Below, piece after piece: positions 1-11,595 of a DNA stretch of 11,595 nucleotides. Below the pieces are notes generated by a model, which ran no database searches, was not told the DNA's origin, and saw nothing but the letters and a program-made list of their open reading frames with translations. The translations under genes and the position numbers were made by a program. Source of the stretch: a virus (lineage: Duplodnaviria; Heunggongvirae; Uroviricota; Caudoviricetes); the IMG/VR virus record IMGVR_UViG_2579778753_000002, positions 1 to 11,595 of that record, one strand, 5' to 3'. Positions within the stretch are counted from its first letter, which is position 1. Every line of letters begins with the position of its first letter.

Positions 1-95
1 AGTTTGCTCCTGCCATAACGTGAAGAAGCAATGACCTGGTGGTCCGTGACTTCCCTACGCTGGCATTATCCAGATCAGGTGATACGGGTATTTCT
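1..95 (-). promoter_or_regulatory. thiM: 3' portion of the thiM TPP riboswitch / thiM 5' leader (thi-box 3' helices, P1 3' strand, SD), cut off from its 5' half by the island
   Basis: Reverse complement of 1-95 reads AGAAATACCCGTATCACCTGATCTGGATAATGCCAGCGTAGGGAAGTCACGGACCACCAGGTCATTGCTTCTTCACGTTATGGCAGGAGCAAACT. I recognise this from memory as the 3' two-thirds of the E. coli thiM thi-box leader ending at the SD (GGAG at 6-9, minus). The thiM ATG would lie immediately left of position 1, outside the window. Confidence 0.85.
82..95. repeat. att core / target-site direct repeat, left copy (ATACGGGTATTTCT)
   Basis: Exact 14-bp direct repeat with 11182-11195. Each copy is joined to one half of the thiM riboswitch sequence on its outer side and to island sequence on its inner side. 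Confidence 0.8.
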
Positions 96-154
96 TACTA
101 ATTTTTGTTATCAGTTGATAATTAATAAGTTTTTAAGCATATAAGAATTAAAAA

Positions 155-230
155 CCTCAAAAATGACCACACAACTGACCACACATTTCGTTGAAGCCCT
201 ACGAACAACGACGAACAATAACAAACAAAA
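155..230. repeat. Arm-type direct repeat (left), containing tandem TGACCACACA x2 and CGAACAA x2
   Basis: About 95% identical to 11031-11106 (4 differences over about 75 bp). In an excised circle the two copies would flank the core at roughly 60 and 85 bp, as integrase arm sites do in attP. Confidence 0.6.
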
Positions 231-466
231 GGGAAATTTGCTGGCAGTTTTGCTTAACCGTTATCATTTTTCGGCTATCCGCTATGAAGCTGGTGGATGA
301 TCACGGATAATCCGTTATGTGGATCCCCATATCGGCATCAGGCCCACCAGCGTGAAGCGTTTTTCATTTTTCGCGGGTATAAAAAATCGATGGGGCTGGC
401 AGTCCGGAAGACGTCAGGGTACAGAGATTTGACCCGCCCCTCCCTGTGCATGAGCACAATAAGTAA

Positions 467-490
467 CCGAAGGCGGAATTCCGCCCTCGG
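467..490 (-). terminator. Candidate intrinsic terminator for the leftward TerS-like/95-aa operon
   Basis: CCGAAGGCGG-AATT-CCGCCCTCGG: 10-bp GC-rich stem with one mismatch and a 4-nt loop. On the minus strand it is followed by TTACTTATTGT (T-rich). Confidence 0.4.
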
Positions 491-522
491 TGCTCACATA
501 TGAGAAACGATATTTCTTACAC

Positions 523-628
523 CGATACCCTTTATTTGGGTATCGCGAGTAAGCCCCAAAATCTGGGTGTTACTCTTACTACCCAAACTACGGGTAGTTT
601 CATAGTCGAGTTGCAGATCTGCAACTCG
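523..628. repeat. Cluster of three inverted repeats / palindromes in the island's terminal non-coding region
   Basis: 523-545 CGATACCC-tttattt-GGGTATCG (8-bp perfect stem). 585-600 AAACTAC-gg-GTAGTTT. 607-628 CGAGTTGCAGATCTGCAACTCG (perfect 22-bp palindrome centred on AGATCT/GATC). Confidence 0.6.
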
Positions 629-675
629 CCACCAGTTGCTAAGTGCATTTTTGCACTTTCGGTAATATCAACCAG

Positions 676-963
676 TTACCGCCGTAAGTGCTCCGGCTTC
701 CTCCACTGGTAAGTATTTTTCGCGCTCTCCCTCCGTTGTTGAGAACGGCGACGGTATGCCAGCAACTCAAGAACTCTGGTTCGTATGTTGCGCATATCCA
801 CGCCGTTAAGCTCAATACCGTCACGGCGCATTACCTCAGCCACCACACGCGCGTAATTTTCAGCGGTGACTGTATCCGGCTGCGCGGCCTGTTCGTCAGC
901 CAACTGGCTGATTCCACCAGCACAGCGGATTAATCGCAGTATTTCAGATTCGGTCATTATCAT
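676..963 (-). CDS. Hypothetical protein, 95 aa, Arg-rich basic C-terminus; translationally coupled to the upstream TerS-like gene
   Basis: ATG at 963-961 overlaps the TGA of the preceding ORF (ATGA overlap at 960-963). Ends in a basic tail (RRRSQQRRESAKNTYQWRKPEHLRR). No family recognised. Confidence 0.55.
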   Translation of the reverse strand: MIMTESEILRLIRCAGGISQLADEQAAQPDTVTAENYARVVAEVMRRDGIELNGVDMRNIRTRVLELLAYRRRSQQRRESAKNTYQWRKPEHLRR

Positions 964-1445
964 GCCTGTTTTGCGACCTCATTCACTACGTCATTTTTTA
1001 CCATCCGGCTGATAATCTGATTACGCAAATCGTCAATAATTGACTGCACTCTGTTTACTGCCATCGGTTTAAGCCCGGCATCACGTGCCAGAATATTGGG
1101 GAGTTTTGCCAGTTCCTCGCTTACGATTTCCCCCCATATAGCCATCTCTTTTCGCACATCATCGGCGGGTATGAGTTGCGCCGTTTCCTGTTCGAACCTG
1201 AGGCGCTCACGTTCGGACTGATACCAGGCCTTACGGTCATGTGGCTCCATTTCTTCCAGTGATGCCGGAACGGGAAGATCAAGAAAACAGGTCAGAATGT
1301 CAGTCACCCGATAGAGTTTTAGCTTGTCATGCCCTCCGGCTGGCTGGATGTTTTTCAGCCTTGCCGCCGCAGTCTGACGACATATTCCCGCTATCGCCGC
1401 CAGTTGATTAATGTTCAGCATCAGATTTTTCAGTTCTCGATCCAT
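960..1445 (-). CDS. Nu1-like small terminase-type HTH protein (candidate satellite TerS or Rpp-like packaging-redirection protein), about 161 aa
   Basis: The ORF-track start at 1532 is a TTG. I prefer the ATG at 1445-1443, preceded by GGAG. The N-terminus (MDRELKNLMLNINQLAAIAGICRQTAAARLKN...LYRVTDIL) has the layout of the lambda Nu1 winged-HTH DNA-binding domain, followed by a predicted helical region. Confidence 0.6.
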   Translation of the reverse strand: MDRELKNLMLNINQLAAIAGICRQTAAARLKNIQPAGGHDKLKLYRVTDILTCFLDLPVPASLEEMEPHDRKAWYQSERERLRFEQETAQLIPADDVRKEMAIWGEIVSEELAKLPNILARDAGLKPMAVNRVQSIIDDLRNQIISRMVKNDVVNEVAKQA

Positions 1446-1716
1446 ACCCGCTCCAGAATGTTTTAAACATGCATCTTGCGAACAACTTTCAGAAGAGGTC
1501 AAAAAATGCGCTATATGTTGAGCATAAAACAAGCAAAATTAACATGCCAAAAATAAAAATACTTAAAATTCAATACAATAGAAAGATGATGATGACGAAT
1601 GAAAATGCAAAAACTAGCCTTTTTCCGCGCCGCTCCCGCCCCGTGGCAGGCCACCTCACCGGGAGGACCCACCCAAAAAAGGCGACTGTCACTATTGTTT
1701 ATGCTCCATGAGCGAC

Positions 1717-1738
1717 AAAACCGCCCGCAGGCGGTTTT
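1717..1738 (-). terminator. Rho-independent terminator (usable in both directions) after the gpI-like gene
   Basis: AAAA-CCGCC-cgca-GGCGG-TTTT, 18 nt downstream of the gpI-like stop (1756). Confidence 0.7.
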
Positions 1739-1755
1739 ACATAAAACGTTTTGTA

Positions 1756-2397
1756 TCAGCGACCAATCACCACAATCTGGCCGCCATCCCCTTCATCTGC
1801 TGTGCTGATCTCTTGCGAAATCACCCGCGACCCGACGCGCATTTCACCGTACAGAACAGGCACAACATTGCCCTGGGCAACCATGTTATCCAGAGAGGAG
1901 AAATAGGTGTTCTGCTTACCGTTATCCGTGGTGCTGGCTGTTGCTGTGCTGGCTTTCGGTGCCAGCATCTGTGCAACACCACCAAGTGTCATCGCCGCCC
2001 CCATTGAAAAGAGAATGTCACTGAAAGCGATACTGATTCCTGGCATCCAGATTGCCGTAGCAATCAGCGCCGCACCAAGCACCGCCTGAAACACGCCGCC
2101 ACTTTTGGCACCAGCCAGACGCGGTACGATGTGGATCACGGCACCATTTTCCAGCGGTTCATTAAGACGGGCTGATAATTCGTTTTCGCCTGTATCACGC
2201 CCGGCAATACGCACCTGATACCAACCATCGCTCAGTTTCTGACGAAACGCTGGGATCTGCATGGCCAGCGCCCGGATGGCTTCGGCCCCCGTTTTCACAT
2301 GAAGATCGATGCGGCGGCCAAATCGTTGTAAATCCCCGTAAAGGCAGATGCGTGCCATGCCCGGTGACGCCAGAGGGAGTGTGTGCGTCGCTGCCAT
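1756..2397 (-). CDS. Lambda gpI-like tail tip assembly protein, 213 aa
   Basis: ATG start with an AGAGAGG RBS. The protein (MAATHTLPLASPGMARICLYGDLQRFGRRIDL...ADEGDGGQIVVIGR) matches my recollection of lambda tail assembly protein I almost end to end, with a shorter Gly/Ala-rich central region. Recalled, not searched. Confidence 0.65.
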   Translation of the reverse strand: MAATHTLPLASPGMARICLYGDLQRFGRRIDLHVKTGAEAIRALAMQIPAFRQKLSDGWYQVRIAGRDTGENELSARLNEPLENGAVIHIVPRLAGAKSGGVFQAVLGAALIATAIWMPGISIAFSDILFSMGAAMTLGGVAQMLAPKASTATASTTDNGKQNTYFSSLDNMVAQGNVVPVLYGEMRVGSRVISQEISTADEGDGGQIVVIGR

Positions 2398-2486
2398 TTG
2401 TCGGTATACCTCTCTCGTTTGCTCAGTTGTTCAGGAATATGGTGCGGCAGCTCGCCGCCCCACGTGTTCAAAGTACCGCCTTGTTG

Positions 2487-4400
2487 TCATGCTCCATTCG
2501 ATTTCAGCAATCCACGATAATCGAGGGCCGCGACACCTGCATCTATGCGCACCTTCCAGGCGACACCATCAACAGTAAAGCCCACCTGCTCCTCAAGATA
2601 TGGCGTATCCATACCATCAAGATAAGCGACTTCTATTGTGTCCATCCCCTTAGCTGCGGCTACATACCATTCCTTGCTATTGGCCTTATCAAGACGTGGC
2701 TCAACAATTACTTCTGCCATATCTTTCACAACGTTAATGATGCCGGGGTTCTGATTGATAGTACCCTCATCACCAACCGGAAAGACTGATGACGATGACA
2801 GAATGGCGCGACGCGCGGCAGATTCCAGCGCGGCAGGGACCAGAACAAAAGCAGGGGTAATATTCAGTGAGTCGCCGTTAGCATCCTCCTGGAGGCGCAT
2901 CAGCTTACGGGCTTCATCAAGCCCCACCATGTCCATATCCTTCGCAATAAGATTTTTATGATCGGCATGGAATAACGCTTTACCATCCGTAAACTTGCCG
3001 TTGCTGGTTAACAGGAGATAAACCAGATTGCCAACTGTTCTGGCGGCTGCGCGTCCCATCGCCATGGGGATTGTAGTTAACTGGGTCAGGTCATCGTTGA
3101 TAATGGCCTGACGGGTAACGGAAAAAATATTCCCGTACGTGGCCAGCGCAATAGGTACACCTTTATCGCTGGTGGTGATGTATTTATATTCCGCACCTTC
3201 CGGTACTTTATCCAGCTTTGAAAAACCATTCAGACCAACGCGCTTTGCTTCATGAAAGTTTGAAAGCGAACCGGTACGCGTCCATTTCTGGAACGTTTCG
3301 CCGCTGTCCTGCCAGCCTTTCAGTACAGATTTTTCAGCCCCACCAGCCAGAATATGAGAAAAATCACTGCTGCTGTGTGTAAAAGCCGCATTAACAACCT
3401 GCGAGCGATTAATAAAACCACTCACAGTGATACCACGATCAACCAGTGATGCCTGGGCCATTTCAAAAAGGCTCATCATCGCGTAAGGGTTGCCTCGTTC
3501 AGGGCGTTCATACCCAAGACGGGAATAAAGCCCCTGACGAATTGCATCACCTGTTATGTTTCCGTTTCCGGCATAGATATGAGGCGGAGTATTTTTATTG
3601 GATGGCGTGGACTCGCGCCCCAGCTCGTTCAACAGCTTTTCACGGGCCATTTCCGGTGTACATGATGCATCTTCCAGACACGCCATTTTGATCCCGTCGT
3701 AACGACTGCCGAACAGGCTAAACACTTCACTTATTCCATTGATGCGCTTCTGTTCATTACCAGCAATATTTGCCGCTCCCTGTGGCGGTGTAATCATTCC
3801 TTTAATGGTTTCCGGCATATGTAAAAAATCTCCTGTGCGCTTCGATTCAATTCGCGCCATTGCTCTGACGGATGGCAACAATTCATCAGCAAAACCGTGC
3901 TTAAGGCATTCTTTCCCGTCCATCCAGGTTTCATCTTCCAGCATGGCGGTAATTTCCTGTGCTGATTTGCCCGTTTTTCTGGCATAAGCAGGGACTAACA
4001 CGGTTTCCACCTTATCCAGCAAATCAGCATAATCACGCATATCACCAGCATTTCCGCCAGAGATACCCCACGGCTTATGTATCATCATCATGGCGTTTTC
4101 CGGCATCACAACACGATCGCCAGCCATTGCGACCACCGAAGCCATTGAAGCCGCAACACCATCGATATAAACCGTAATGTCTGCCGGATGATTCCGTAGC
4201 AGGTTATAGATGGCGATGCCTTCAAACACATCACCACCTGGTGAATGGATCCTCAGATTGATATGTGAAACATCGCCAAGGGCTTTCAGGTCTTCCGCGA
4301 ACTGCTTTGCAGTAACACCGAAGCCGCCAATCTCCTCATAGATAGATATATCCGCCGCTCCGCGAACATCCGCCGCCTTAATGGTGTACCAGCGATTCAT
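2487..4400 (-). CDS. Fusion of ClpP/S14-type prohead protease (N-terminal), linker/scaffold-like segment and HK97-fold major capsid protein (C-terminal), 637 aa
   Basis: N-terminus has ClpP-like motifs (HSPGGDVFEGIAIYN, GVAASMASVVAMAGD, MMMIHKPWG). The C-terminal 350 aa or so looks like a phage major capsid protein (ITPAFVLVPAALESAARRAI..., FTVDGVAWKVRIDAGVAALDYRG). ATG start with a GGGGGAA RBS. Long ORF with no internal stops. Confidence 0.85.
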   Translation of the reverse strand: MNRWYTIKAADVRGAADISIYEEIGGFGVTAKQFAEDLKALGDVSHINLRIHSPGGDVFEGIAIYNLLRNHPADITVYIDGVAASMASVVAMAGDRVVMPENAMMMIHKPWGISGGNAGDMRDYADLLDKVETVLVPAYARKTGKSAQEITAMLEDETWMDGKECLKHGFADELLPSVRAMARIESKRTGDFLHMPETIKGMITPPQGAANIAGNEQKRINGISEVFSLFGSRYDGIKMACLEDASCTPEMAREKLLNELGRESTPSNKNTPPHIYAGNGNITGDAIRQGLYSRLGYERPERGNPYAMMSLFEMAQASLVDRGITVSGFINRSQVVNAAFTHSSSDFSHILAGGAEKSVLKGWQDSGETFQKWTRTGSLSNFHEAKRVGLNGFSKLDKVPEGAEYKYITTSDKGVPIALATYGNIFSVTRQAIINDDLTQLTTIPMAMGRAAARTVGNLVYLLLTSNGKFTDGKALFHADHKNLIAKDMDMVGLDEARKLMRLQEDANGDSLNITPAFVLVPAALESAARRAILSSSSVFPVGDEGTINQNPGIINVVKDMAEVIVEPRLDKANSKEWYVAAAKGMDTIEVAYLDGMDTPYLEEQVGFTVDGVAWKVRIDAGVAALDYRGLLKSNGA

Positions 4401-4606
4401 TGTTCCCCCACCGATGCAAAACCATTCTGATTAAGCCAGGTGTTTACGGCATGTCTGACAATCTGCGCCACACCTGGTAATGGTTGGTCAGGATGATGAT
4501 TTATATGGTCGATCCTGTACTGCTTAAGGCGCATAACGGTCTGCGCATCCAGATGAACGGAACCACCTCTGGTATCACCTGTATTCAGGTCATTAATACA
4601 ACTCAC
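4397..4606 (-). CDS. Hypothetical small protein (69 aa), translationally coupled to the protease-capsid gene
   Basis: GTG start at 4606 preceded by AGAGGAAG. Its TGA overlaps the ATG of the capsid gene (ATGA at 4397-4400). Confidence 0.5.
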   Translation of the reverse strand: MSCINDLNTGDTRGGSVHLDAQTVMRLKQYRIDHINHHPDQPLPGVAQIVRHAVNTWLNQNGFASVGEQ

Positions 4607-4708
4607 AGCAACTTCCTCTGACTGACTAAACTATGCACATTATTGATCGATAAAAGTGGTAAATAAACATGTTTCTATCATAAAAACAGATTAATTAGAT
4701 TCAGACAC

Positions 4709-4731
4709 AAAAAAGCCGGATTTCTCCGGCT
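4709..4731 (-). terminator. Rho-independent terminator ending the replication operon / ori region
   Basis: On the minus strand: AGCCGGA-gaaa-TCCGGCT followed by TTTTTTG. Confidence 0.65.
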
Positions 4732-4867
4732 TCTGTCACTCGTTGCTTAAAACGGTATGTTATCCCCGTACGGATCATCATTCCCCGCCTGTTGTTTTGG
4801 TGTGCTTCGCTGTCATAGGCTTTATCTCACAGCAGTAAATTAAAATTTTTGCGTTTTAACCCTTCAC

Positions 4868-5090
4868 CTGTTCACCTTTTGATATTTTCTCTTTTAATTC
4901 ATAATGTTAAGGGGTGAACAGTTTCAAAAAAACTATTCACCAACTGTTCACCACTGTTCACCCTTGAAGCTCAATAAACAATCAAAAAGGTGAACAGTGA
5001 ATAGTTTGGTGAACAGTTCATAAATAACTGTTCACCCTATAATATACTGATATAAAAGATATTTATGACAGGGTGAACAGTGGTGAACAG
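4868..5090. repeat. Iteron array (at least 9 copies of GGTGAACAG / CTGTTCACC in both orientations) with an AT-rich stretch: candidate P4-type origin of replication
   Basis: Direct copies at 4913, 4989, 5009, 5072, 5082. Inverted copies at 4868, 4944, 4954, 5029. Degenerate copies at 4933 and 4997. AT-rich 5041-5069. Sits immediately 3' of the alpha-like gene. The motif contains TGTTCACC, which I recall as the P4 alpha-binding type I iteron. Confidence 0.75.
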
Positions 5091-5103
5091 TTATTCCATA
5101 AGT

Positions 5104-6921
5104 TTAATTTTTGCTATCGTCATTAGTGACCGATACACATGATGGCATCCAGTCTTCTGATTCCTCCGTCAGTGTCACGTTTGAACGCAAACCGTGCTTC
5201 GTTTTCCGTTTCATATACTCCCTGCCATATTCCGCCATTGCCCCCGGCATATCTTTACCGAAGCGCGTCAGTGTTACAGGTTTACCAAACCCATGTGCCC
5301 TCATATAAGCCAGATAGGCATGATAGAGATACCTGCGTGGGCTGAATGGCACAATTTCAGCATTACCCACTAACAGGCCATCACACATTACCGACGCCAT
5401 GAGATAGCCGCAGAAGTCCACCAGCGAATCCCCCTCTCGCTTTATCGCCAGTGCTTCTTCTGATTTCTGCTGCTCATATAACAGGCGTCTGGCTTCGTCC
5501 TGGTCAGCAAACCGTGTAAGCAGATGGCGAATCACTACCGCCAGCTCACCTTCTATTTTTTCCGCCAGCATTGGATCACGTTCGTTCTCCGGTACAACTT
5601 CCGAAAAATTGAATATCACCCGACGACGTGAGATCCCCCCGCTGCGGTCACTGAATGACATGGCGTTATTGTTAACCGCCAGCACTACTGCCGGAATACG
5701 CGTTGAGTAGGGGGCTTTGTGTTTCGGGTCAATTGCCACCTTGTCACCGCCTGTAATAGCCTTAATCCCTGCCCCATCACCAGCGTAGCGGGTCATATCC
5801 GGCATGATAATCAGCGAAAAGCCAACCACTAACGCGCGTTCCCTTGCATCTTCCAGCGCCTTCATGCTTGCCGATACTGTGTTGGCCTTACCCGCCAGCA
5901 TGGTGCAAATCTCCGCCATCACGCTTTTACCACTTCCCCCTGGACCTGTTACCTCAATGAATAACTGCCAGTCGTACCGGTTCGCCAGCACCATGAATAA
6001 TGCAGCCAGTACGCGATCCGCCTTGCGGTCATTCTCAGCCACCGAACGGCGTAACCACTTCCAGAAATTCGGCGCATGTGTTGCCAGCATTTCCCCCTCT
6101 GCTGGTGGGCTGAAAGGTAATTCACTGGCAATTAACAACCAGTCGTTTTTGTTATGCTCCCGAAAATTACCTGTTCTGGTATCAAATACCCCGTTACTGA
6201 ATCCAATCAGGTTACGGGCTGTATTCCCCATTACAGGCAAACTTAACTTCATGGTATCGACCGCCGATTTAATGGCGTTCTGCGAATAGCTGATCTCCGC
6301 ATCAATGAAAATCTGCGCCATAGCTCGCTGTAATTCTTTATCCTGTACTGGCTCCCATACAACGCCGTTGTAATGGTGAACAGTGTCAGAGTCAGCATGA
6401 ATCGCCAGTTCACCGCCATAATGTGCCAGGAGAACTTCGCCGCGTTGACTTGCTCCCATCTGGTTAAGCGCCAGTGATGAAGCGTTATCGTCTTTTACCC
6501 GCTCTTTTTTCTTTACAGGCAGTTCAACTACCTTTTTCTTTTCCTCCAGCTCTGCCCGTTCACGTTCCAGATATTCGCGCCAGTTCTCCCGTTTCTGGCT
6601 GTGCATTCCTTCAGGGTAATAATCAGCATCCCTGACACCTGCCGCTGCCAGTTTCTGCCCGATGGTATTAACAAGCCCCGGACGCAATAACCCCGCCTGA
6701 TAGAGACGCACGCGATAGCGTCCGTCCGGTACGATTTGCAGGTTGTCCAGTTCGGCAAGTTGTTGCTCTCCAAGCCAGACAGGAGGCACGTTATCGCCAG
6801 CCAGTCGCCCGTCCTGTTCCTGCCACTGCTTCGCATGTGCCCACGCATTACTACCCGCAAAAATGATGACTTCCGTCATTTTGTCACGCGGCTGGTGTTT
6901 TAAATTTGGCGCTTTTTTCAT
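5104..6921 (-). CDS. P4 alpha-like replication protein (D5_N-type domain plus SF3 helicase with Walker A GPGGSGKS; phage/plasmid primase P4-family C-terminal region)
   Basis: About 605 aa from the ATG at 6921 (GGAG RBS); the ORF track extends to a GTG at 6936. Walker A VTGPGGSGKS, Walker B-like LVVGFSLIIMPD. Adjacent to the iteron array. Confidence 0.85.
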   Translation of the reverse strand: MKKAPNLKHQPRDKMTEVIIFAGSNAWAHAKQWQEQDGRLAGDNVPPVWLGEQQLAELDNLQIVPDGRYRVRLYQAGLLRPGLVNTIGQKLAAAGVRDADYYPEGMHSQKRENWREYLERERAELEEKKKVVELPVKKKERVKDDNASSLALNQMGASQRGEVLLAHYGGELAIHADSDTVHHYNGVVWEPVQDKELQRAMAQIFIDAEISYSQNAIKSAVDTMKLSLPVMGNTARNLIGFSNGVFDTRTGNFREHNKNDWLLIASELPFSPPAEGEMLATHAPNFWKWLRRSVAENDRKADRVLAALFMVLANRYDWQLFIEVTGPGGSGKSVMAEICTMLAGKANTVSASMKALEDARERALVVGFSLIIMPDMTRYAGDGAGIKAITGGDKVAIDPKHKAPYSTRIPAVVLAVNNNAMSFSDRSGGISRRRVIFNFSEVVPENERDPMLAEKIEGELAVVIRHLLTRFADQDEARRLLYEQQKSEEALAIKREGDSLVDFCGYLMASVMCDGLLVGNAEIVPFSPRRYLYHAYLAYMRAHGFGKPVTLTRFGKDMPGAMAEYGREYMKRKTKHGLRSNVTLTEESEDWMPSCVSVTNDDSKN

Positions 6922-7217
6922 TTCTGCTCTCTCCACGCGGCAATCATGTTTTTCAGTTCCTGTAGTTTTTTATCAACATCCATACATGACACATGGTTAT
7001 TTCTGGAAGGCGGGATTTCCCGCCGGAATCTGCAAATAAAGATCTCCACGTTCAGCGAACTATGAAATGAATAGCCATCACGAATAAAATACACACGGTC
7101 AAACATCAGTTCTTTTACCGTTACTCTGTTACCGTTCTTATCCAGATAAATAGCGCCGGGGATAATTTTGGGGTGTGCATAACCGCTGGCAGTCAAGCCA
7201 GATATATATGTTCTCAT
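6918..7217 (-). CDS. Hypothetical protein (99 aa), translationally coupled to the alpha-like gene
   Basis: ATG start. Its TGA overlaps the ATG of the alpha-like gene (ATGA at 6918-6921). No family recognised. Confidence 0.55.
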   Translation of the reverse strand: MRTYISGLTASGYAHPKIIPGAIYLDKNGNRVTVKELMFDRVYFIRDGYSFHSSLNVEIFICRFRREIPPSRNNHVSCMDVDKKLQELKNMIAAWREQK

Positions 7218-7223
7218 GATTAT

Positions 7224-7544
7224 TTATCCCCGATTTGAATCAGTATTCGCTTTCTTTATGGCATTTAATGCATCTGTGGCATTTTCAATGGTGCACCGTA
7301 ACGAAATATCAAACTGCCCAAGCATTGCCAGTAACAAACCGATATTACCCATATCAATGCGCATGGCCTTTTCGTCATAGTCCTCATTTTCTGACGCATG
7401 CCACATCAGGCTACCAATTGACGCAATACCCATTGATATATTGTCAGTAGCCCCATCCGCAGCGGAATAAACCTTTTTAGCAATATCATGCTCACAGTTA
7501 AAATGCGGATTAATCAGGTACTGGTAATTGGTCATGTCAGGCAT
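7224..7544 (-). CDS. Hypothetical acidic protein (106 aa)
   Basis: ATG at 7544 preceded by AGGGGGGG. Ends 7 nt before the next gene in the same operon. No family recognised. Confidence 0.55.
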   Translation of the reverse strand: MPDMTNYQYLINPHFNCEHDIAKKVYSAADGATDNISMGIASIGSLMWHASENEDYDEKAMRIDMGNIGLLLAMLGQFDISLRCTIENATDALNAIKKANTDSNRG

Positions 7545-7740
7545 GGCACCCCCCCTGACGAATACGGGCGGCGAATACCATCACGCAGCCAGCCGGGGAT
7601 TGCTGGCGTGCTTCCTGTTCGCTGGTGGCCACGATGGTAATCACGCGCGGTTGTGCCGTGCTCAGGGCGATAAAACGCCAGATGTATTTATTCAGGTTGT
7701 GCGAGTCCCGCCCTTGCGGGTGTGTGGTATGATTTCTCAT
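7537..7740 (-). CDS. Possible small protein (67 aa), first gene of the replication operon
   Basis: ATG at 7740 with GAGG 7 nt upstream. Its stop overlaps the 106-aa start by 8 nt (ATGCCTGA). It is the C-terminal segment of a long, otherwise implausible 362-aa ORF. Confidence 0.35.
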   Translation of the reverse strand: MRNHTTHPQGRDSHNLNKYIWRFIALSTAQPRVITIVATSEQEARQQSPAGCVMVFAARIRQGGCHA

Positions 7741-7838
7741 AGCTGCCTCGATAATCTTGCTATCGTTGGTGGTTAGAAGCCCCGTTACTGCTCCTACAGT
7801 GCGGGGTTTCGTCGTTTCTGCACCTTGCATTAACAAGG

Positions 7839-7916
7839 TGTAAGTAACTTTATTTATAGGTGGCTTACATGTCAATGCTTTTATGTAAGACTTTTTATGT
7901 GTATATTGTCTTACAC
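7839..7916. promoter_or_regulatory. Divergent promoter/operator region with four GTAAG/CTTAC half-sites
   Basis: Half-sites at 7840, 7864, 7885, 7910, including CTTACAT-N12-ATGTAAG. Minus-strand promoter candidate: -35 TTGACA (7875-7870), 17-bp spacer, -10 TAAAGT (7852-7847). Plus-strand candidate -10 TATATT (7902-7907). Confidence 0.45.
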
Positions 7917-7936
7917 TTTCATTGAGAGGATTACAG

Positions 7937-8242
7937 ATGGCTACAGGTTCAAAAAACGCAAAATCACAATCACTGACAGCTCGGATCCCGCATGATGTTA
8001 TTGAAGGCATGGAATCCGTAAAACTGGACGGTGAAAGCAACGCCGGATTCATAGTAACCGCCATGCGCGGTGAAATCGCCCGCCGCCAGGCAGAAGGAAG
8101 CGGAGAAAACCTCCTGGTTTCTTCGCTCGATGCCCTAGCGCAGGTGGAAAAAATCGGAGTCAAAGCCGCCGAGGAGATCGGGCAACTCGTCACCGTCGCG
8201 CGTGAAGAACTCCAGCGACGCAAGGTCAAAGAGCAGGAATAG
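7937..8242 (+). CDS. Ribbon-helix-helix-like putative DNA-binding regulator (101 aa)
   Basis: ATG at 7937 with GAGAGGA 6 nt upstream (the ORF track's 7922 start is a TTG). N-terminal beta-strand-plus-helix pattern (SLTARIPHDVIEGMESVKL). Transcribed opposite to the rest of the island. Confidence 0.55.
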   Translation: MATGSKNAKSQSLTARIPHDVIEGMESVKLDGESNAGFIVTAMRGEIARRQAEGSGENLLVSSLDALAQVEKIGVKAAEEIGQLVTVAREELQRRKVKEQE

Positions 8243-8299
8243 CCACTATCAGCGCCATAGTTTGAGGAACGCAGGCGCATTGCTTTACAGGACAGCACC

Positions 8300-8479
8300 A
8301 TGAGCGACACAGAATCAACCAAAACACCATCACCAACTCGTAAGAGACGACGCAAAAATATAGCGCATGAACATGAATCAGAAAGATTCGCACCTTGTTC
8401 GTTTGCTCTTGAGAAATTCCTTAAAGAGCACAGGAAAAAGCTCTCGTTGCAAACCTTGGAACGAACCAAATCTGACTGA
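8300..8479 (+). CDS. Possible small basic protein (59 aa), downstream of the RHH-like gene
   Basis: ATG at 8300, in-frame TGA at 8477-8479, just below the 60-aa track cutoff. Lys/Arg-rich N-terminus (TRKRRRKNIAHEHE). Followed by a strong terminator. Confidence 0.35.
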   Translation: MSDTESTKTPSPTRKRRRKNIAHEHESERFAPCSFALEKFLKEHRKKLSLQTLERTKSD

Positions 8480-8546
8480 TCACATTGCCCACCAGCCGCA
8501 AATGTGGCATTGTTGGCGATGCGTTCAAGTTTAGTGTGTATCCATT

Positions 8547-8575
8547 GGCGACCGCCCCCGGTCGCCTTTGTTTTA
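8547..8575 (+). terminator. Rho-independent terminator of the rightward RHH-like operon
   Basis: GGCGACCG-cccc-CGGTCGCC (8-bp perfect stem) followed by TTTGTTTTAT. Confidence 0.8.
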
Positions 8576-8593
8576 TATGTCATATGCTCCCCT

Positions 8594-8818
8594 TTACGCT
8601 GCCTTACCTGAATTAACGCGGTCACGGCTTTGCACCCAGTCCATAACTTCGGAAAGCAACCAGCCTACAGAACGCCCCCCAAGATTACGGCGAGACGGAA
8701 AGCCCCCTTTCTTCTCCAGTTCGTAGCGTGTAGTACGGCTGACGCCTGTTAACTTACGACATTCATCCTCACGAATTACGCGATCTGTTAGTGATTGAAA
8801 TTGTGTATTTTGATTCAT
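8594..8818 (-). CDS. alpA: AlpA-family prophage transcriptional regulator (74 aa)
   Basis: ATG with GAGGGTG RBS. HTH region (CRKLTGVSRTTRYELEKKGGFPSRRNLGGRSVGW) matches the AlpA/MerR-like fold found next to P4-type integrases. Confidence 0.85.
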   Translation of the reverse strand: MNQNTQFQSLTDRVIREDECRKLTGVSRTTRYELEKKGGFPSRRNLGGRSVGWLLSEVMDWVQSRDRVNSGKAA

Positions 8819-8921
8819 AAAAACACCCTCGAACGTAACCGAACAAGGGCATCTTATTTACCATAGCAGTTGGTGCAATATTGGAAAAATAAACTTTATT
8901 CTAATTTATCGTTCTCCATGA

Positions 8922-9776
8922 TTAATTTTCATTAGATAACATTTTTCTTATTTTTTCTAAAGAATCGCTGCGCATTATTTTTTCTAAGAAGGGTTTTACA
9001 GTCTGAGCAATAGCAAAGGTGTCCTTTTCACCATCAGGATACAAAGATACGGCAAGCACCCCTAATGAAATTTTTCTATCTGTAGACAACTCCCAAGATA
9101 ATAAGTCAATTAATGGGATTATCTTATAATCAATAATTTTACGTCGTATGCTCTCCCAACTTCCTGCAATTGGTTTGTCTGGCTCAACAATTGAAAGTTC
9201 ACTACGCCATTTTGGTAATAGTTTTGTAAACGCTTCAATCAACTCATCATCTCTGTTATGTAGTAAGTCAACAGAAACAAGCATATTATCTAATGTATCA
9301 GAAAGGAGATTCACTGGTTCACGCATCACAGCCCAAAACATCCCATTATCTTCTGATATTAAACTTCCAACCATCTCATTATCTATGATGATTGGTTTAT
9401 CCTTCCAATATCCTCTTTCCGCAGTCAGTTTATTAATCATTGATATATCAAACCTTGTTACAGGTTTAATTCCATCATCATAACTTAGCTCAATTAACTT
9501 CGGTTGCACTTTATGGTCATATTCTTTTTGTTTATCACAAAACCAATCGTCTTCTTTCAGCTCTCCAAATGGATCCCCGTAATTATTATGCAACGGGTAT
9601 TCAGCACCAAACATAAATCCATATTCAGGCATCTCAGAATGTTTCATCGTTAAATCATCTTGTCGCCAATATAATTGGCGAAATAGATCTTTATCCGACA
9701 AGTTTTCTAGGCAATCATATTTGCCTAAATCAAATGACTTTGGTAAATCTTTTTTACTATTTACTTTTTTCGTCAT
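8922..9776 (-). CDS. Hypothetical protein (284 aa), AT-rich cargo gene between int and alpA
   Basis: Uninterrupted 855-nt ORF. Its ATG overlaps the int TGA (ATGA at 9773-9776). Visibly more AT-rich than the flanking int and alpA. No recognisable catalytic motif. Confidence 0.75.
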   Translation of the reverse strand: MTKKVNSKKDLPKSFDLGKYDCLENLSDKDLFRQLYWRQDDLTMKHSEMPEYGFMFGAEYPLHNNYGDPFGELKEDDWFCDKQKEYDHKVQPKLIELSYDDGIKPVTRFDISMINKLTAERGYWKDKPIIIDNEMVGSLISEDNGMFWAVMREPVNLLSDTLDNMLVSVDLLHNRDDELIEAFTKLLPKWRSELSIVEPDKPIAGSWESIRRKIIDYKIIPLIDLLSWELSTDRKISLGVLAVSLYPDGEKDTFAIAQTVKPFLEKIMRSDSLEKIRKMLSNEN

Positions 9777-10993
9777 TGTATCCCTCTCAATATCACAATA
9801 TTTTCATTATATCCTGCAATCATATCAAGACGCTCAACCCATAGATTCAGTGCGTCCCGTTTCGCCTGCAAATAGCGTGAATGGTTATAGGTTTTTTGCT
9901 GACCTGGCATCTGATGCGCTGTGATGTGCTCCACGATATGCGGATCGACACCTAAATCATTCAGCATAGTTGTAAACGTGTGTCGGAAATCATGCAGCGT
10001 CCAGTGTTCCTGCTTAAGCCGCTTATGCGCATTTCGTCCATATTGCGCCACCGTGGTATCTTTTTTCAGTTCGCCGAGTAATAACCCAGTGTGTGCGTTT
10101 TGCTCCACCAGCTTCTGAATGAACGGCAAAATACCATCAGGAATAGGTCGGAATATTGTTACCTTCGTTTTGCTGTGCTCTTTTGGCACTGTCCACAACA
10201 TTTCTTTCAGATCCCATTCTTTGATCTCTGAAAGTCTGATCTCTGCCGTTCTGCACCCGAACACAATTAACAAGCGCATTAACGCACTGTAATAGGGAGC
10301 GAACACATCACCATCAATAGCGCGTAGAATTTCTTTTAGTTCGCTGTTGCTGTGCACTCTCTCGCGGATTTCTGCTCTCTTACCCACATCAGTAACGATC
10401 AAATCGTCCAGGGCGTTGCTAAACGCGTAGCGCCGCCTGCGGCAAAACTTTAGCGCCTGTTTGCATGTCTGCATGACATGGCCCGCTGCTACTGGTGCTT
10501 TTTTTCGTACGCGGTCAAAACATGCGATCCACTGCCTTGTATCACACTTATCAAGGGGAATTGCCCCAATATGGCAAATGATGTGCTTATCCATACGCTG
10601 CACCAGCTTTATGTAATCTTTGCGGTTATCCTTCGCGTATTCCTCCAGCCAGTAGTTAATCGCTTCCTTCACCGTAACGGGTTTTAGTGCTTCCTGTACT
10701 GTGGCGCACAACTCATAACGGGGGTTTTTACCCTCAGCCAGCCATGCCCGGCACAGTGTGCGTTTTTCCCTTGCGGCTTTCAGCGACAATTCAGGGTAAG
10801 CCCCCAGCTTTAACCGCTCTGCGGCAACCTCACGGCCTCCCGTTCGGTACCGGAAATACCAGGTTAATTTGCCGCCCTTTGAGTGTTTAATCTCCAGCCC
10901 GCCCCCGTCGGAGTAAAAACGCTCTTTTTCTGCCTGGACAGCCGCCAATTTTTTTAACGTCGAATCGCTCAGTTTGTTTAGTGCTTTTCCCAC
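9773..10993 (-). CDS. int: P4-family tyrosine integrase (406 aa)
   Basis: GTG start with GAGGA RBS. N-terminal arm-binding-type region (GGLEIKHSKGGKLTWYFRYR...GAYPELSLKAAREKR). C-terminal catalytic region with HDFRHTF and a downstream Tyr. Adjacent to the att site. Confidence 0.9.
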   Translation of the reverse strand: MGKALNKLSDSTLKKLAAVQAEKERFYSDGGGLEIKHSKGGKLTWYFRYRTGGREVAAERLKLGAYPELSLKAAREKRTLCRAWLAEGKNPRYELCATVQEALKPVTVKEAINYWLEEYAKDNRKDYIKLVQRMDKHIICHIGAIPLDKCDTRQWIACFDRVRKKAPVAAGHVMQTCKQALKFCRRRRYAFSNALDDLIVTDVGKRAEIRERVHSNSELKEILRAIDGDVFAPYYSALMRLLIVFGCRTAEIRLSEIKEWDLKEMLWTVPKEHSKTKVTIFRPIPDGILPFIQKLVEQNAHTGLLLGELKKDTTVAQYGRNAHKRLKQEHWTLHDFRHTFTTMLNDLGVDPHIVEHITAHQMPGQQKTYNHSRYLQAKRDALNLWVERLDMIAGYNENIVILRGIQ

Positions 10994-11030
10994 TATCAGA
11001 TCCTCTTTTCAGTCCTCCAGCCTCAAAAAA

Positions 11031-11106
11031 CTGACCACACAACTGACCACACATTTTGTTGAAGCTCTACGAACAACGACGAACAACAACAAACAATAAA
11101 ACAGGA
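11031..11106. repeat. Arm-type direct repeat (right), partner of 155-230
   Basis: Same tandem TGACCACACA and CGAACAA sub-repeats. Lies in the int upstream region, about 40 bp from the int start. Confidence 0.6.
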
Positions 11107-11181
11107 TAATTTATTGTTTATCAAATACATACATAAACAACCACAAGCAACCCCGAACCACAAAAAACACTAAATGAGAAA

Positions 11182-11195
11182 ATACGGGTATTTCT
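11182..11195. repeat. att core / target-site direct repeat, right copy
   Basis: Identical to 82-95. Confidence 0.8.
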
Positions 11196-11238
11196 CAGCC
11201 TTCACGCAGAAGGGCACCCCGAGTCGTTTGGTTGCGAT
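11182..11238 (-). promoter_or_regulatory. thiM: 5' portion of the thiM TPP riboswitch aptamer (P1 5' strand, P2, P3, CUGAGA), separated from its 3' half
   Basis: Reverse complement reads CAACCAAACGACTCGGGGTGCCCTTCTGCGTGAAGGCTGAGAAATACCCGTAT, which I recognise as the 5' half of the thiM thi-box. Confidence 0.85.
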
Positions 11239-11322
11239 GATAAATCGCAGAGGAGGATGGTAATGTCCAGCGCACGCGTTGTAAACGAGGAAAAACGGCA
11301 GTTTTACAATCGCGTTAATAAA

Positions 11323-11595
11323 TTATTTGATATATGAATCCAGCACCTTCAGAACGACATCCAGATCTTCTTCACGTTTTAGCTCATCCCCCTGGTGAAC
11401 GATGTGTTCCGTCAGATGACCTTTAATCACTTCCCGCATCAGACCGTTTACCGCGCCACGGATAGCAGCAATCTGTTGTAAAACTGCAGCGCATTCGTGC
11501 GGCTCGTCGAGCATTTTCTTGAGCGCCACGACCTGGCCCTGAATCTTACTGGCACGCGCTTTCAGTTTCTGTTTATCACGGATTGTATGAGACAT
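11323..11595 (-). CDS. rcnR: RcnR, Ni/Co-responsive transcriptional repressor (CsoR/RcnR family), 90 aa, complete
   Basis: ATG at 11595. The protein ([64 protein letters not shown]...) matches my recollection of E. coli RcnR, including the His-Cys metal-site signature. Confidence 0.9.

Follow-up and report, generated by a model that had tools for sequence, protein, structure and literature searches.

What function is served by an unusually dense group of palindromes near one end of an E. coli phage satellite is the question raised by positions 467–628 of the DNA analysed here, a stretch of 11,595 nucleotides (positions 1 to 11,595 of the IMG/VR virus record IMGVR_UViG_2579778753_000002; hereafter, the window). 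The window is a phage-satellite-type island of ~11.1 kb integrated in the leader of the E. coli thiM gene. The original prediction, made from the sequence alone, placed these palindromes in the terminal non-coding region of the island, considered so much dyad symmetry unlikely by chance and proposed a cos (cohesive-end) or packaging site, a regulator operator array or a structured RNA. The position is borne out: the core of the attachment site (att), ATACGGGTATTTCT, a 14-bp direct repeat marking the island ends, is found at 82–95 with its second copy at 11182–11195, so that the terminal non-coding region spans 96–675. A non-coding module of ~215 nt (~466–681), in the middle of which lies the flagged interval, forms the 3′ flank of the open reading frame ORF93 (676–963, minus strand), the last gene of the packaging operon, which encodes a 95-aa hypothetical protein (phrog_1561). 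Among the functions that we considered for the module, that of a 3′-end stem-loop and terminator module of this operon ranks first, as a tentative suggestion drawn from sequence comparison.

A chance origin of the hairpin cluster is excluded, as had been expected. Five perfect stems of at least 7 bp are present in 467–628 against a mean of 0.07, and none of 2000 dinucleotide shuffles of the 162-nt interval had five stems, nor did any of the 2000 have an 11-bp stem; the interval is the densest of the window for perfect stems. The array reaches 681: from the stop codon of ORF93 to a GC-rich hairpin at 466–491, eight hairpins follow one another. Folding of 455–690 yields −101 kcal/mol (z = −8.5) for the minus strand and −92 kcal/mol (z = −9.2) for the plus strand, and on either strand the eight stem-loops use nearly every base from the stop codon to the GC hairpin.

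All four elements that had been pointed out are present in the flagged interval, within which hairpins at 548–576 and ~500–520 and an imperfect 33-nt inverted repeat (526–558 / 564–596) had been missed, as had the hairpins 641–658 and 660–681 on its right side. Following the array from the gene outwards, the hairpin CGGTAA-N10-TTACCG at 660–681 overlaps the ORF93 stop codon and encloses a consensus for the integration host factor (IHF). The next one, AAGTGCA-TTTT-TGCACTT at 641–658, to the right of the flagged interval, keeps its pairing among relatives while the stem sequence changes (GTGCA, CGCAA, CCCAT and GGCGG variants). The 22-bp palindrome CGAGTTGCAGATCTGCAACTCG at 607–628 is perfect and centred on GATC in the window, as had been noted, but this centre is not kept in relatives: the 8-bp arms are invariant in 31 variants, which gives a conserved unit GAGTTGCA-N4-TGCAACTC, and the centre is AGATCT, AAATCT or AAATTT. 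At 578–600 two dyads overlap, CTACCC-AAACTAC-GGGTAG, which may form an alternative hairpin at 578–598 with a 7-bp stem and a 7-nt loop, and AAACTACGGGTAGTTT at 585–600; the latter, described as a 16-bp palindrome, is a real dyad but not a perfect one (7+2+7, the central GG not being self-complementary). Most relatives have a 9-nt tandem duplication here (GTAGTTTCC), and substitutions in one arm are uncompensated.

The hairpin GAGTAA..CCCA-AAATC-TGGG..TTACTC at 548–576 (6+4 pairs) has an inner part that is invariant in all relatives and an outer stem that wobbles on both strands, again uncompensated. The 8-bp-stem hairpin proposed at 523–545 is confirmed as perfect (CGATACCC-TTTATTT-GGGTATCG, 7-nt loop); its loop is variable, and two compensatory events are seen in its stem (C-G to T-A at the base, A-T to C-G in the IMG/VR locus L058). 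A small hairpin, AGAAAC GAT ATTTCT at 500–520, appears in the folds of both strands and is kept in relatives of the window type and of two of the backbones described below (L005 and L007). The array ends with the GC-rich hairpin ACCGAAGGCGGAATTCCGCCCTCGGT at 466–491 (minus strand), with 11 pairs and an AATT loop. The site of the predicted 10-bp GC stem is real, but its perfect core measures only 7 bp (472–485), and the 11 pairs include one that is A.C on the plus strand and G.U on the minus strand.

This last hairpin gives the array a terminator-like end. Read from 491 to 466 on the minus strand, that is on the strand of ORF93 and 185 nt past its stop codon, it is followed by TACTTATTGT and is the sole terminator-like site in 250–1000; the features of an intrinsic terminator are found at 491→466 only (11 pairs, 8 GC, tail TACTTATTGT, the tail being weak). 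We rank a 3′-end module first because it agrees with the position, the strand, the terminator-like hairpin at the end of the array and the covariation of the outer hairpins. Upon transcription of the operon the module would fold into about eight stem-loops, the last of which would be the hairpin 491→466. It may end the operon transcript and insulate from it the cos homologue at 362–444, the att core at 82–95, the accessory genes and the host genes that lie beyond, and it may also protect the 3′ end of the mRNA. We infer in this way that the module acts as RNA and terminates or stabilises the transcript.

The conservation of the module across related islands, which the original prediction had proposed to examine, was found to be extensive. 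The segment 445–675 matches 709 of 5426 complete E. coli genomes at 808 places, with at least 80% coverage in 446 genomes and a minimal shared part of ~520–630; the module is also present in Salmonella, and its position is almost always directly downstream of ORF93. It was found only in satellites, at 1–6 places per genome, not dispersed in the chromosome, and searches of phage genomes did not find it in bona fide phages. The annotated backbones that carry it include a capsid-fusion island beside a truncated prophage (L005), two islands at tqsA, one with genes for a P27-type small terminase (TerS) and the large terminase (TerL) (L006) and one with capsid, decoration and Nu1-like genes (L008), and a CFT073-like phage-inducible chromosomal island (PICI) with an Abi gene beyond the module (L007). 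In a Salmonella thiM island with a lambda-type capsid/Nu1 module the entire block 311–958 is found at 88% identity.

Two pattern scans of IMG/VR added 87 further loci with 46 distinct variants. As the patterns lay inside the core, the invariance of 551–591 and of the palindrome arms in that sample is partly due to its construction; the BLAST survey of E. coli genomes and matches to the palindrome only back real conservation, while the pattern bias of the IMG/VR sample stays. Scans of one genome per species, by exact pattern as well as seeded with proteins, gave no match, and the sequence diversity therefore stems from E. coli genomes, E. albertii, Salmonella and the contigs of IMG/VR. When all fetched loci were searched by local BLAST, 94 had the core (548–630), and in 88 of these ORF93 adjoins it. 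The HK97-type cos is beside the core in only ~27 of these 94 loci, with fixed spacing where both are present, and about two thirds of the core-bearing loci have no such cos within 2.5 kb.

The converse arrangement also occurs. Four loci (L098–L101) have ORF93 and the left block of the cos region (homologous to window 254–405) but no hairpin core; in E. albertii islands and in L098 ORF93 is followed by non-homologous hairpins and then by the 254–405 homologue, with an iteron module in L098. A P4-like element without ORF93 (L094) carries a reduced version, consisting of the ACACCCAAAATTTGGGTGT hairpin, the palindrome, one more hairpin and an ATCAA...TTA motif, downstream of a different small gene, in a 3′ region between convergent genes. 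The module occurs together with terminase genes of the P27, Nu1/Rpp and DUF1441 types. It thus appears, as judged by this distribution, to be a mobile unit in its own right, which can occur apart from cos, apart from a given terminase type and occasionally also apart from ORF93. Both the 88 of 94 cores that follow ORF93 and the version in L094, which again lies 3′ of a gene and between convergent genes, support the 3′-end reading.

Several observations weigh against it. The GC hairpin has a modest T-rich tail (5 T in 8), which the L005, L006 and L007 types lack; this tail is seen only in islands that also bear the adjacent HK97-type cos. The fold z-scores are the same on both strands and the wobble-type variants of the core are equally frequent on the two (17 versus 17 cells), so that there is no sign of selection on a one-strand RNA; it is only in the GC hairpin that G.U prevails on the strand of the gene, in 22 of the 26 variants whose sequence covers the pair, with A.C on the other strand. 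Covariation, also suggested originally as a check, was scored in an alignment of 31 variants against the local-hairpin structure, with 90.6% of the cells paired. Changes on both sides affect 8 of 51 pairs versus 6.3 in shuffles, and 105 of 500 shuffles were as high, the power of the test being limited by the close relationship of the variants (Escherichia, Shigella, Salmonella). All these changes are in the outer hairpins (641–658, 523–545 and the GC hairpin). Covariation is never seen in the central hairpins 548–576, 578–598 and 607–628: of their 25 pairs, 14 do not vary and the rest depart by mismatches only, and the loops of the first two are as conserved as the stems. RNAalifold gave a covariation term of ~0 and preferred a long-range alternative in which TACCC and GGGTA arms from adjacent hairpins pair with each other. 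The invariance of the central hairpins (548–628) fits sequence-specific recognition better than a generic structural role. The structured RNA originally proposed finds weak support in the terminator-like hairpin 491→466 and a few outer compensatory changes; the central hairpins, with neither covariation nor strand-specific G.U, speak against it. We infer that the near-invariance of the central ~80 nt reflects recognition by some conserved factor.

These points lead to the reading that we place a close second, almost as likely as the first though equally tentative, according to which the module would be a cis-acting site in duplex DNA, with IHF-organised dyad sites of the TACCC-N7-GGGTA type and the unit GAGTTGCA-N4-TGCAACTC bound by a factor common to satellites (ORF93, a helper or a host protein) and used to assist packaging, to handle concatemers or in some other DNA transaction close to the end of the genome. 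It better explains the sequence-level invariance and the symmetry of the central part, where loops and spacers are conserved as sequence along with the stems, where the symmetry is equal on both strands, and where the palindrome centre toggles between two fully symmetric states (AGATCT and AAATTT), neither of which a 4-nt loop needs. The IHF consensus WATCAANNNNTTR has its only perfect match in the window at 666–678 (plus strand, here TATCAACCAGTTA), outside the flagged interval, and in related loci the motif ATCAAC-NNG-TTA is repeated in 1–3 copies, always on the same strand, which points to a predicted nucleoprotein site at the DNA level; the lone match itself, however, is not significant, 0.79 being expected per window. 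The terminal non-coding region is also where cis sites cluster (cos and att, and iterons in L098 and L021).

ORF93, a constant neighbour of the module with a basic C-terminal tail, which follows terminase-related genes, could be the factor in such a scheme, but it occurs without the core in L098–L101, a core-like element occurs without it in L094, and its AlphaFold model, all helical, is of low confidence (pLDDT, the predicted local distance difference score, of 66). The occurrence of the module with three terminase systems, and with an adjacent cos or none, makes a terminase-specific role unlikely. The 862 homologues of ORF93 are all enterobacteriaceal and annotated as 'hypothetical protein', and the gene always stands last, behind genes related to terminases (TerL, Nu1/Rpp-like or DUF1441 TerS). 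The C-terminal tail of its product, rich in Arg (RRRSQQRRESAKNTYQWRKPEHLRR), appears to resemble the arginine-rich RNA-binding motif of lambda N. ORF93 was also considered as an Rpp; it has no match in the PDB and by sequence is not an Rpp.

A trans-acting regulatory RNA is, in our opinion, distinctly unlikely. Such an RNA might be a small RNA (sRNA) derived from the 3′ untranslated region and ending at 491→466, with its invariant loops pairing to helper or host transcripts. The invariant loops and linkers, the 3′ terminator-like hairpin on the gene strand and the restriction of the module to satellites, with absence from phages, would suit it; no promoter-like site was found, however, the U-tail is poor for an sRNA of the Hfq type, there is no strand bias, and no Rfam family was recognised. 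At the gathering threshold Rfam had 0 matches in the window, and the sole match in 300–800 (E = 7.7) was spurious; for the window together with six related loci, nothing relevant was obtained at gathering or permissive thresholds, and ARAGORN detected no transfer RNA (tRNA) or transfer-messenger RNA (tmRNA). A trans-acting RNA would also be in keeping with the palindrome, whose 22 nt come close to identity with a stretch of the KilA-N genes of SfII and Stx2a phages. Together with 8–10 flanking bases (597–628) it is 87% identical to SfII 33596–33627, inside KilA-N-domain genes, and matches are also found in phages Kati, 2H10 and Yersinia YeP1-3, with the same 'ELQICNS' encoded in frame. This near-identity of 22–32 nt has an E value of about 0.1 and is absent from most of the cos-sharing phages (SfV, SfI, ST64B, phiP27); we rejected a relation to KilA-N, and the match is probably coincidental or an ancient fragment.

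As for a cos or packaging site, the original prediction had the right neighbourhood and the wrong interval, as the homology to phage cos regions stops 23 nt short of it. In BLAST against phage genomes the 83-nt block 362–444 (minus strand) is 82–95% identical to the genome ends or cos regions of the HK97/SfV/phiP27 type in phages vB_EcoM-720R4, SKA5, SfII, ST64B, 118970_sal3 and phiP27, and partly in SfI, SfV and SfIV. The annotated 10-nt cos-site of phiP27 corresponds to window 392–401 (GGGGCTGGCA here, GGGGCGGGCA/G in phages); the record ends of SfV and SfIV correspond to the junction of 408 and 409 and that of SfI to 392. The same search with 445–700 gave nothing significant, only short weak matches (KilA-N genes), and no lambda-type cosN-like GGGCGG... 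sequence was found in 445–700. With no phage-cos match there, and with co-occurrence that is not obligatory, the flagged interval was rejected as a cos of the HK97/SfV/phiP27 type.

In the cos-sharing phages the order on the same strand is HNH gene, cos, terS (P27 family) and terL; the flagged interval is therefore found where these phages have their HNH gene, on the side that is packaged last. In the island cos the A-tract flank (362–391) points to the terS side of the phages, a position that matches the A-tract bound by HK97 TerS 15–29 bp downstream of the cut (PMC10370121). The island has no cognate P27-TerS, HNH or TerL gene for this cos. A second cos, of the lambda/mEp460/phi458 type, lies at ~1587–1700 (minus strand), directly upstream of the DUF1441 TerS gene (960–1445/1532, minus strand), whose product is 62–70% identical to TerS of mEp460, phi458 and Ayreon; the region aligns at about 85% with that upstream of terS in phage phi458, including the lambda-like cosN (GGGCGGGAGCGG, ~1630–1641). 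E. coli PICIs are known to possess two cos sites with island-specific flanks, cos1 and cos2 in EcCICFT073 (PMC6092414, PMC6739421). The present island likewise has two, of unrelated types, which suggests that it can use two different helper families, and neither of these predicted sites lies in 467–628.

That the interval might still be an accessory part of a functional cos, as a cosQ-like or termination-side extension of 362–444 or as a set of binding sites for the DUF1441 TerS, is improbable. It does lie 23–240 bp from the cos block, on the side packaged last and at a fixed spacing where both are present, and E. coli PICIs have island-specific cosB regions (PMC6739421). The phage homology nevertheless ends at 444, where helper-type phages carry an HNH gene; about two thirds of the core loci have no such cos, and L098–L101 combine the left cos block and ORF93 with no core; the module is found with terminase genes of all three types; and the DUF1441 TerS has its own lambda-like cos, with the cosB side immediately upstream of its gene. 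The block between att and cos (250–361) has its own palindrome CCGTTATGTGGATCCCCATATCGG at 312–335 and is 82–93% conserved with E. albertii islands and other islands resembling capsid-forming PICIs (cf-PICIs) that have HNH, P27-TerS and TerL genes; it is a candidate for the TerS side of the HK97-type cos, as a cosB-like part specific to the island.

A small protein read from the plus strand (ATG at 500, 70 codons, ...QNLGV...ELQICNS...) is highly improbable: its frame is open in 31 of 31 variants, with 9-nt and 36-nt indels in frame and several third-position changes within 602–640, but another frame does equally well in 602–640, 521–600 holds 11 synonymous and 26 non-synonymous changes, about as expected, with no third-position excess (13, 7 and 9 variable sites at codon positions 1, 2 and 3), so that the frame is not singled out, the start codon is neither conserved in position nor preceded by a Shine-Dalgarno sequence, one variant has a 1-nt deletion, and PHROG offers no match. 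The proposed regulator operator array did not survive, related dyads being absent from the rest of the island, including its regulatory region: outside 523–628 neither ACCC-N5-9-GGGT nor TTGCA-N2-8-TGCAA is found, and there is no notable sharing of 9-mers elsewhere. An origin of replication at the flagged interval was considered and rejected, the very probable origin being instead a P4-type iteron cluster at 4860–5100. The evidence excludes chance, coding, a known RNA family, a replication origin, an att arm and the cos site itself.

The island as a whole has all its substantial genes on the minus strand. In addition to ORF93 and the DUF1441 TerS homologue they encode an integrase (9773–10993), a DUF6387 protein, a repressor-like protein, a DUF4222 protein, a primase of the D5/P4-alpha type (5104–6936), a fusion of ClpP protease and major capsid protein (2487–4400) and a protein similar to lambda tail assembly protein I (1756–2397). 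The capsid fusion and the tail-assembly-I-like gene (1756–4400) are thus present in an 11-kb satellite from which portal and large terminase are absent, a gene set intermediate between classical PICIs and capsid-forming ones; certain close relatives lack the tail-I-like gene or have a HEPN gene in its place. In E. coli Ecol_224 the same element sits between thiM and rcnR. The att core falls within the thiamine pyrophosphate (TPP) riboswitch of thiM (35–97 and 11182–11231), so that integration splits the aptamer: the 3′ half remains beside thiM, and the 5′ half with the thiM promoter side is left 11 kb away, beside rcnR. The halves score 33.3 and 20.6 bits, both under the Rfam threshold of 54.3; the P2/P3 helices are not rebuilt by the island end, and the junction is identical in a Salmonella island (L102). 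A direct repeat of ~80 nt (TGACCACACAACTGACCACACATTT...CTACGAACAACGACGAACAA) at 140–240 and 11017–11110 flanks the att core on both sides; its copies would flank attP in the excised circle and are candidate arm sites for the integrase or excisionase.

The iteron cluster at 4860–5100 comprises ~11 copies of GGTGAACAGT/ACTGTTCACC in both orientations with A/T-rich spacers, just downstream of the D5-type primase gene; the motif contains TGTTCACC, the type-I iteron of P4. This cluster is very probably the origin of the island, and the replication module would then be P4-like. Iterons are also met near the hairpin core in other satellites: four IMG/VR loci (L013, L021, L038 and L058) have two hairpin cores 434 nt apart with an iteron module of TTGCGGGTTA repeats between them, and in L098 (2783–3320) inverted sets of these iterons lie on either side of an A/T-rich stretch, an origin-like arrangement between ORF93 and the left cos block. 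The Chi sequence GCTGGTGG is found 10 times in the 11.6 kb (at 289, 344, 914, 3168, 3340, 5418, 6101, 7621, 8489 and 10105) against 0.34 expected from shuffles. An inverted Chi pair, 289–296 on the plus and 344–351 on the minus strand, adjoins the HK97-type cos, and in most relatives an additional minus-strand Chi directly abuts the 22-bp palindrome (GGCTGGTGGGTGAGTTGCAG). One possibility is that the Chi excess shields concatemers or cut ends against RecBCD in this element, where no Gam is recognisable.

Comparison with known systems places the module beside several of them and within none. With the cos sites of E. coli PICIs and of lambda- and HK97-type phages it shares a non-coding position at the packaging end of a satellite, next to real cos sequences; unlike them, it has no cosN-like sequence or homology to phage cos regions and is independent of the cos type. 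IHF-binding elements such as bacterial interspersed mosaic elements (BIMEs) and repetitive IHF-binding palindromic (RIP) elements, which belong with the repetitive extragenic palindromes (REP), are multi-hairpin 3′ intergenic elements. The module resembles them, and intrinsic terminators, in its tandem stem-loops after a stop codon, its GC hairpin, the IHF consensus beside hairpins and its placement in 3′ regions or between convergent genes. It differs from REP/BIME elements in having no sequence similarity recognisable by inspection, in being confined to satellites rather than dispersed in the chromosome, and in a central part that is conserved as sequence and not as structure. The CI RNA of P4 and the c4 antisense RNA of P1 (Rfam C4) belong to the small structured RNAs through which satellites and prophages act on transcripts of their own or of a helper, and this island has a replication module of the P4 type (iterons TGTTCACC); in contrast to those RNAs, the module has no Rfam match even at permissive thresholds and lies 3′ of the packaging operon instead of in an immunity region.

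A full-text literature search found the core sequences in no paper, the publications on PICIs and cf-PICIs covering cos and Rpp, not this module. We regard it as unlikely, if worth keeping in mind, that the invariant core of ~80–110 nt (~548–630 with the flanking hairpins) is an undescribed non-coding element, RNA or protein-bound DNA, specific to enterobacterial satellites and serving to exploit their helpers or to interfere with them; shared by PICI-like, cf-PICI-like and P4-like backbones, it would be, for example, a decoy for a factor of the helper or host, a site that such a factor recognises, or a trans-acting RNA.

The phage satellites of E. coli (PICIs, cf-PICIs and P4-like elements) carry virulence and defence genes, and their packaging and their interference with helpers are an active topic. 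The present analysis sets the true cos sites of one such island apart from a neighbouring module that is present in ~13% of complete E. coli genomes, and the targets for mapping or cloning of its cos are 362–444 and ~1587–1700, not 467–628. If the module only terminates and stabilises the operon transcript, it is an ordinary component; either way, it provides a handy marker for the ORF93 end of islands. Should the invariant core prove to be a binding site or a regulatory RNA, it would represent a new shared component of satellite biology.

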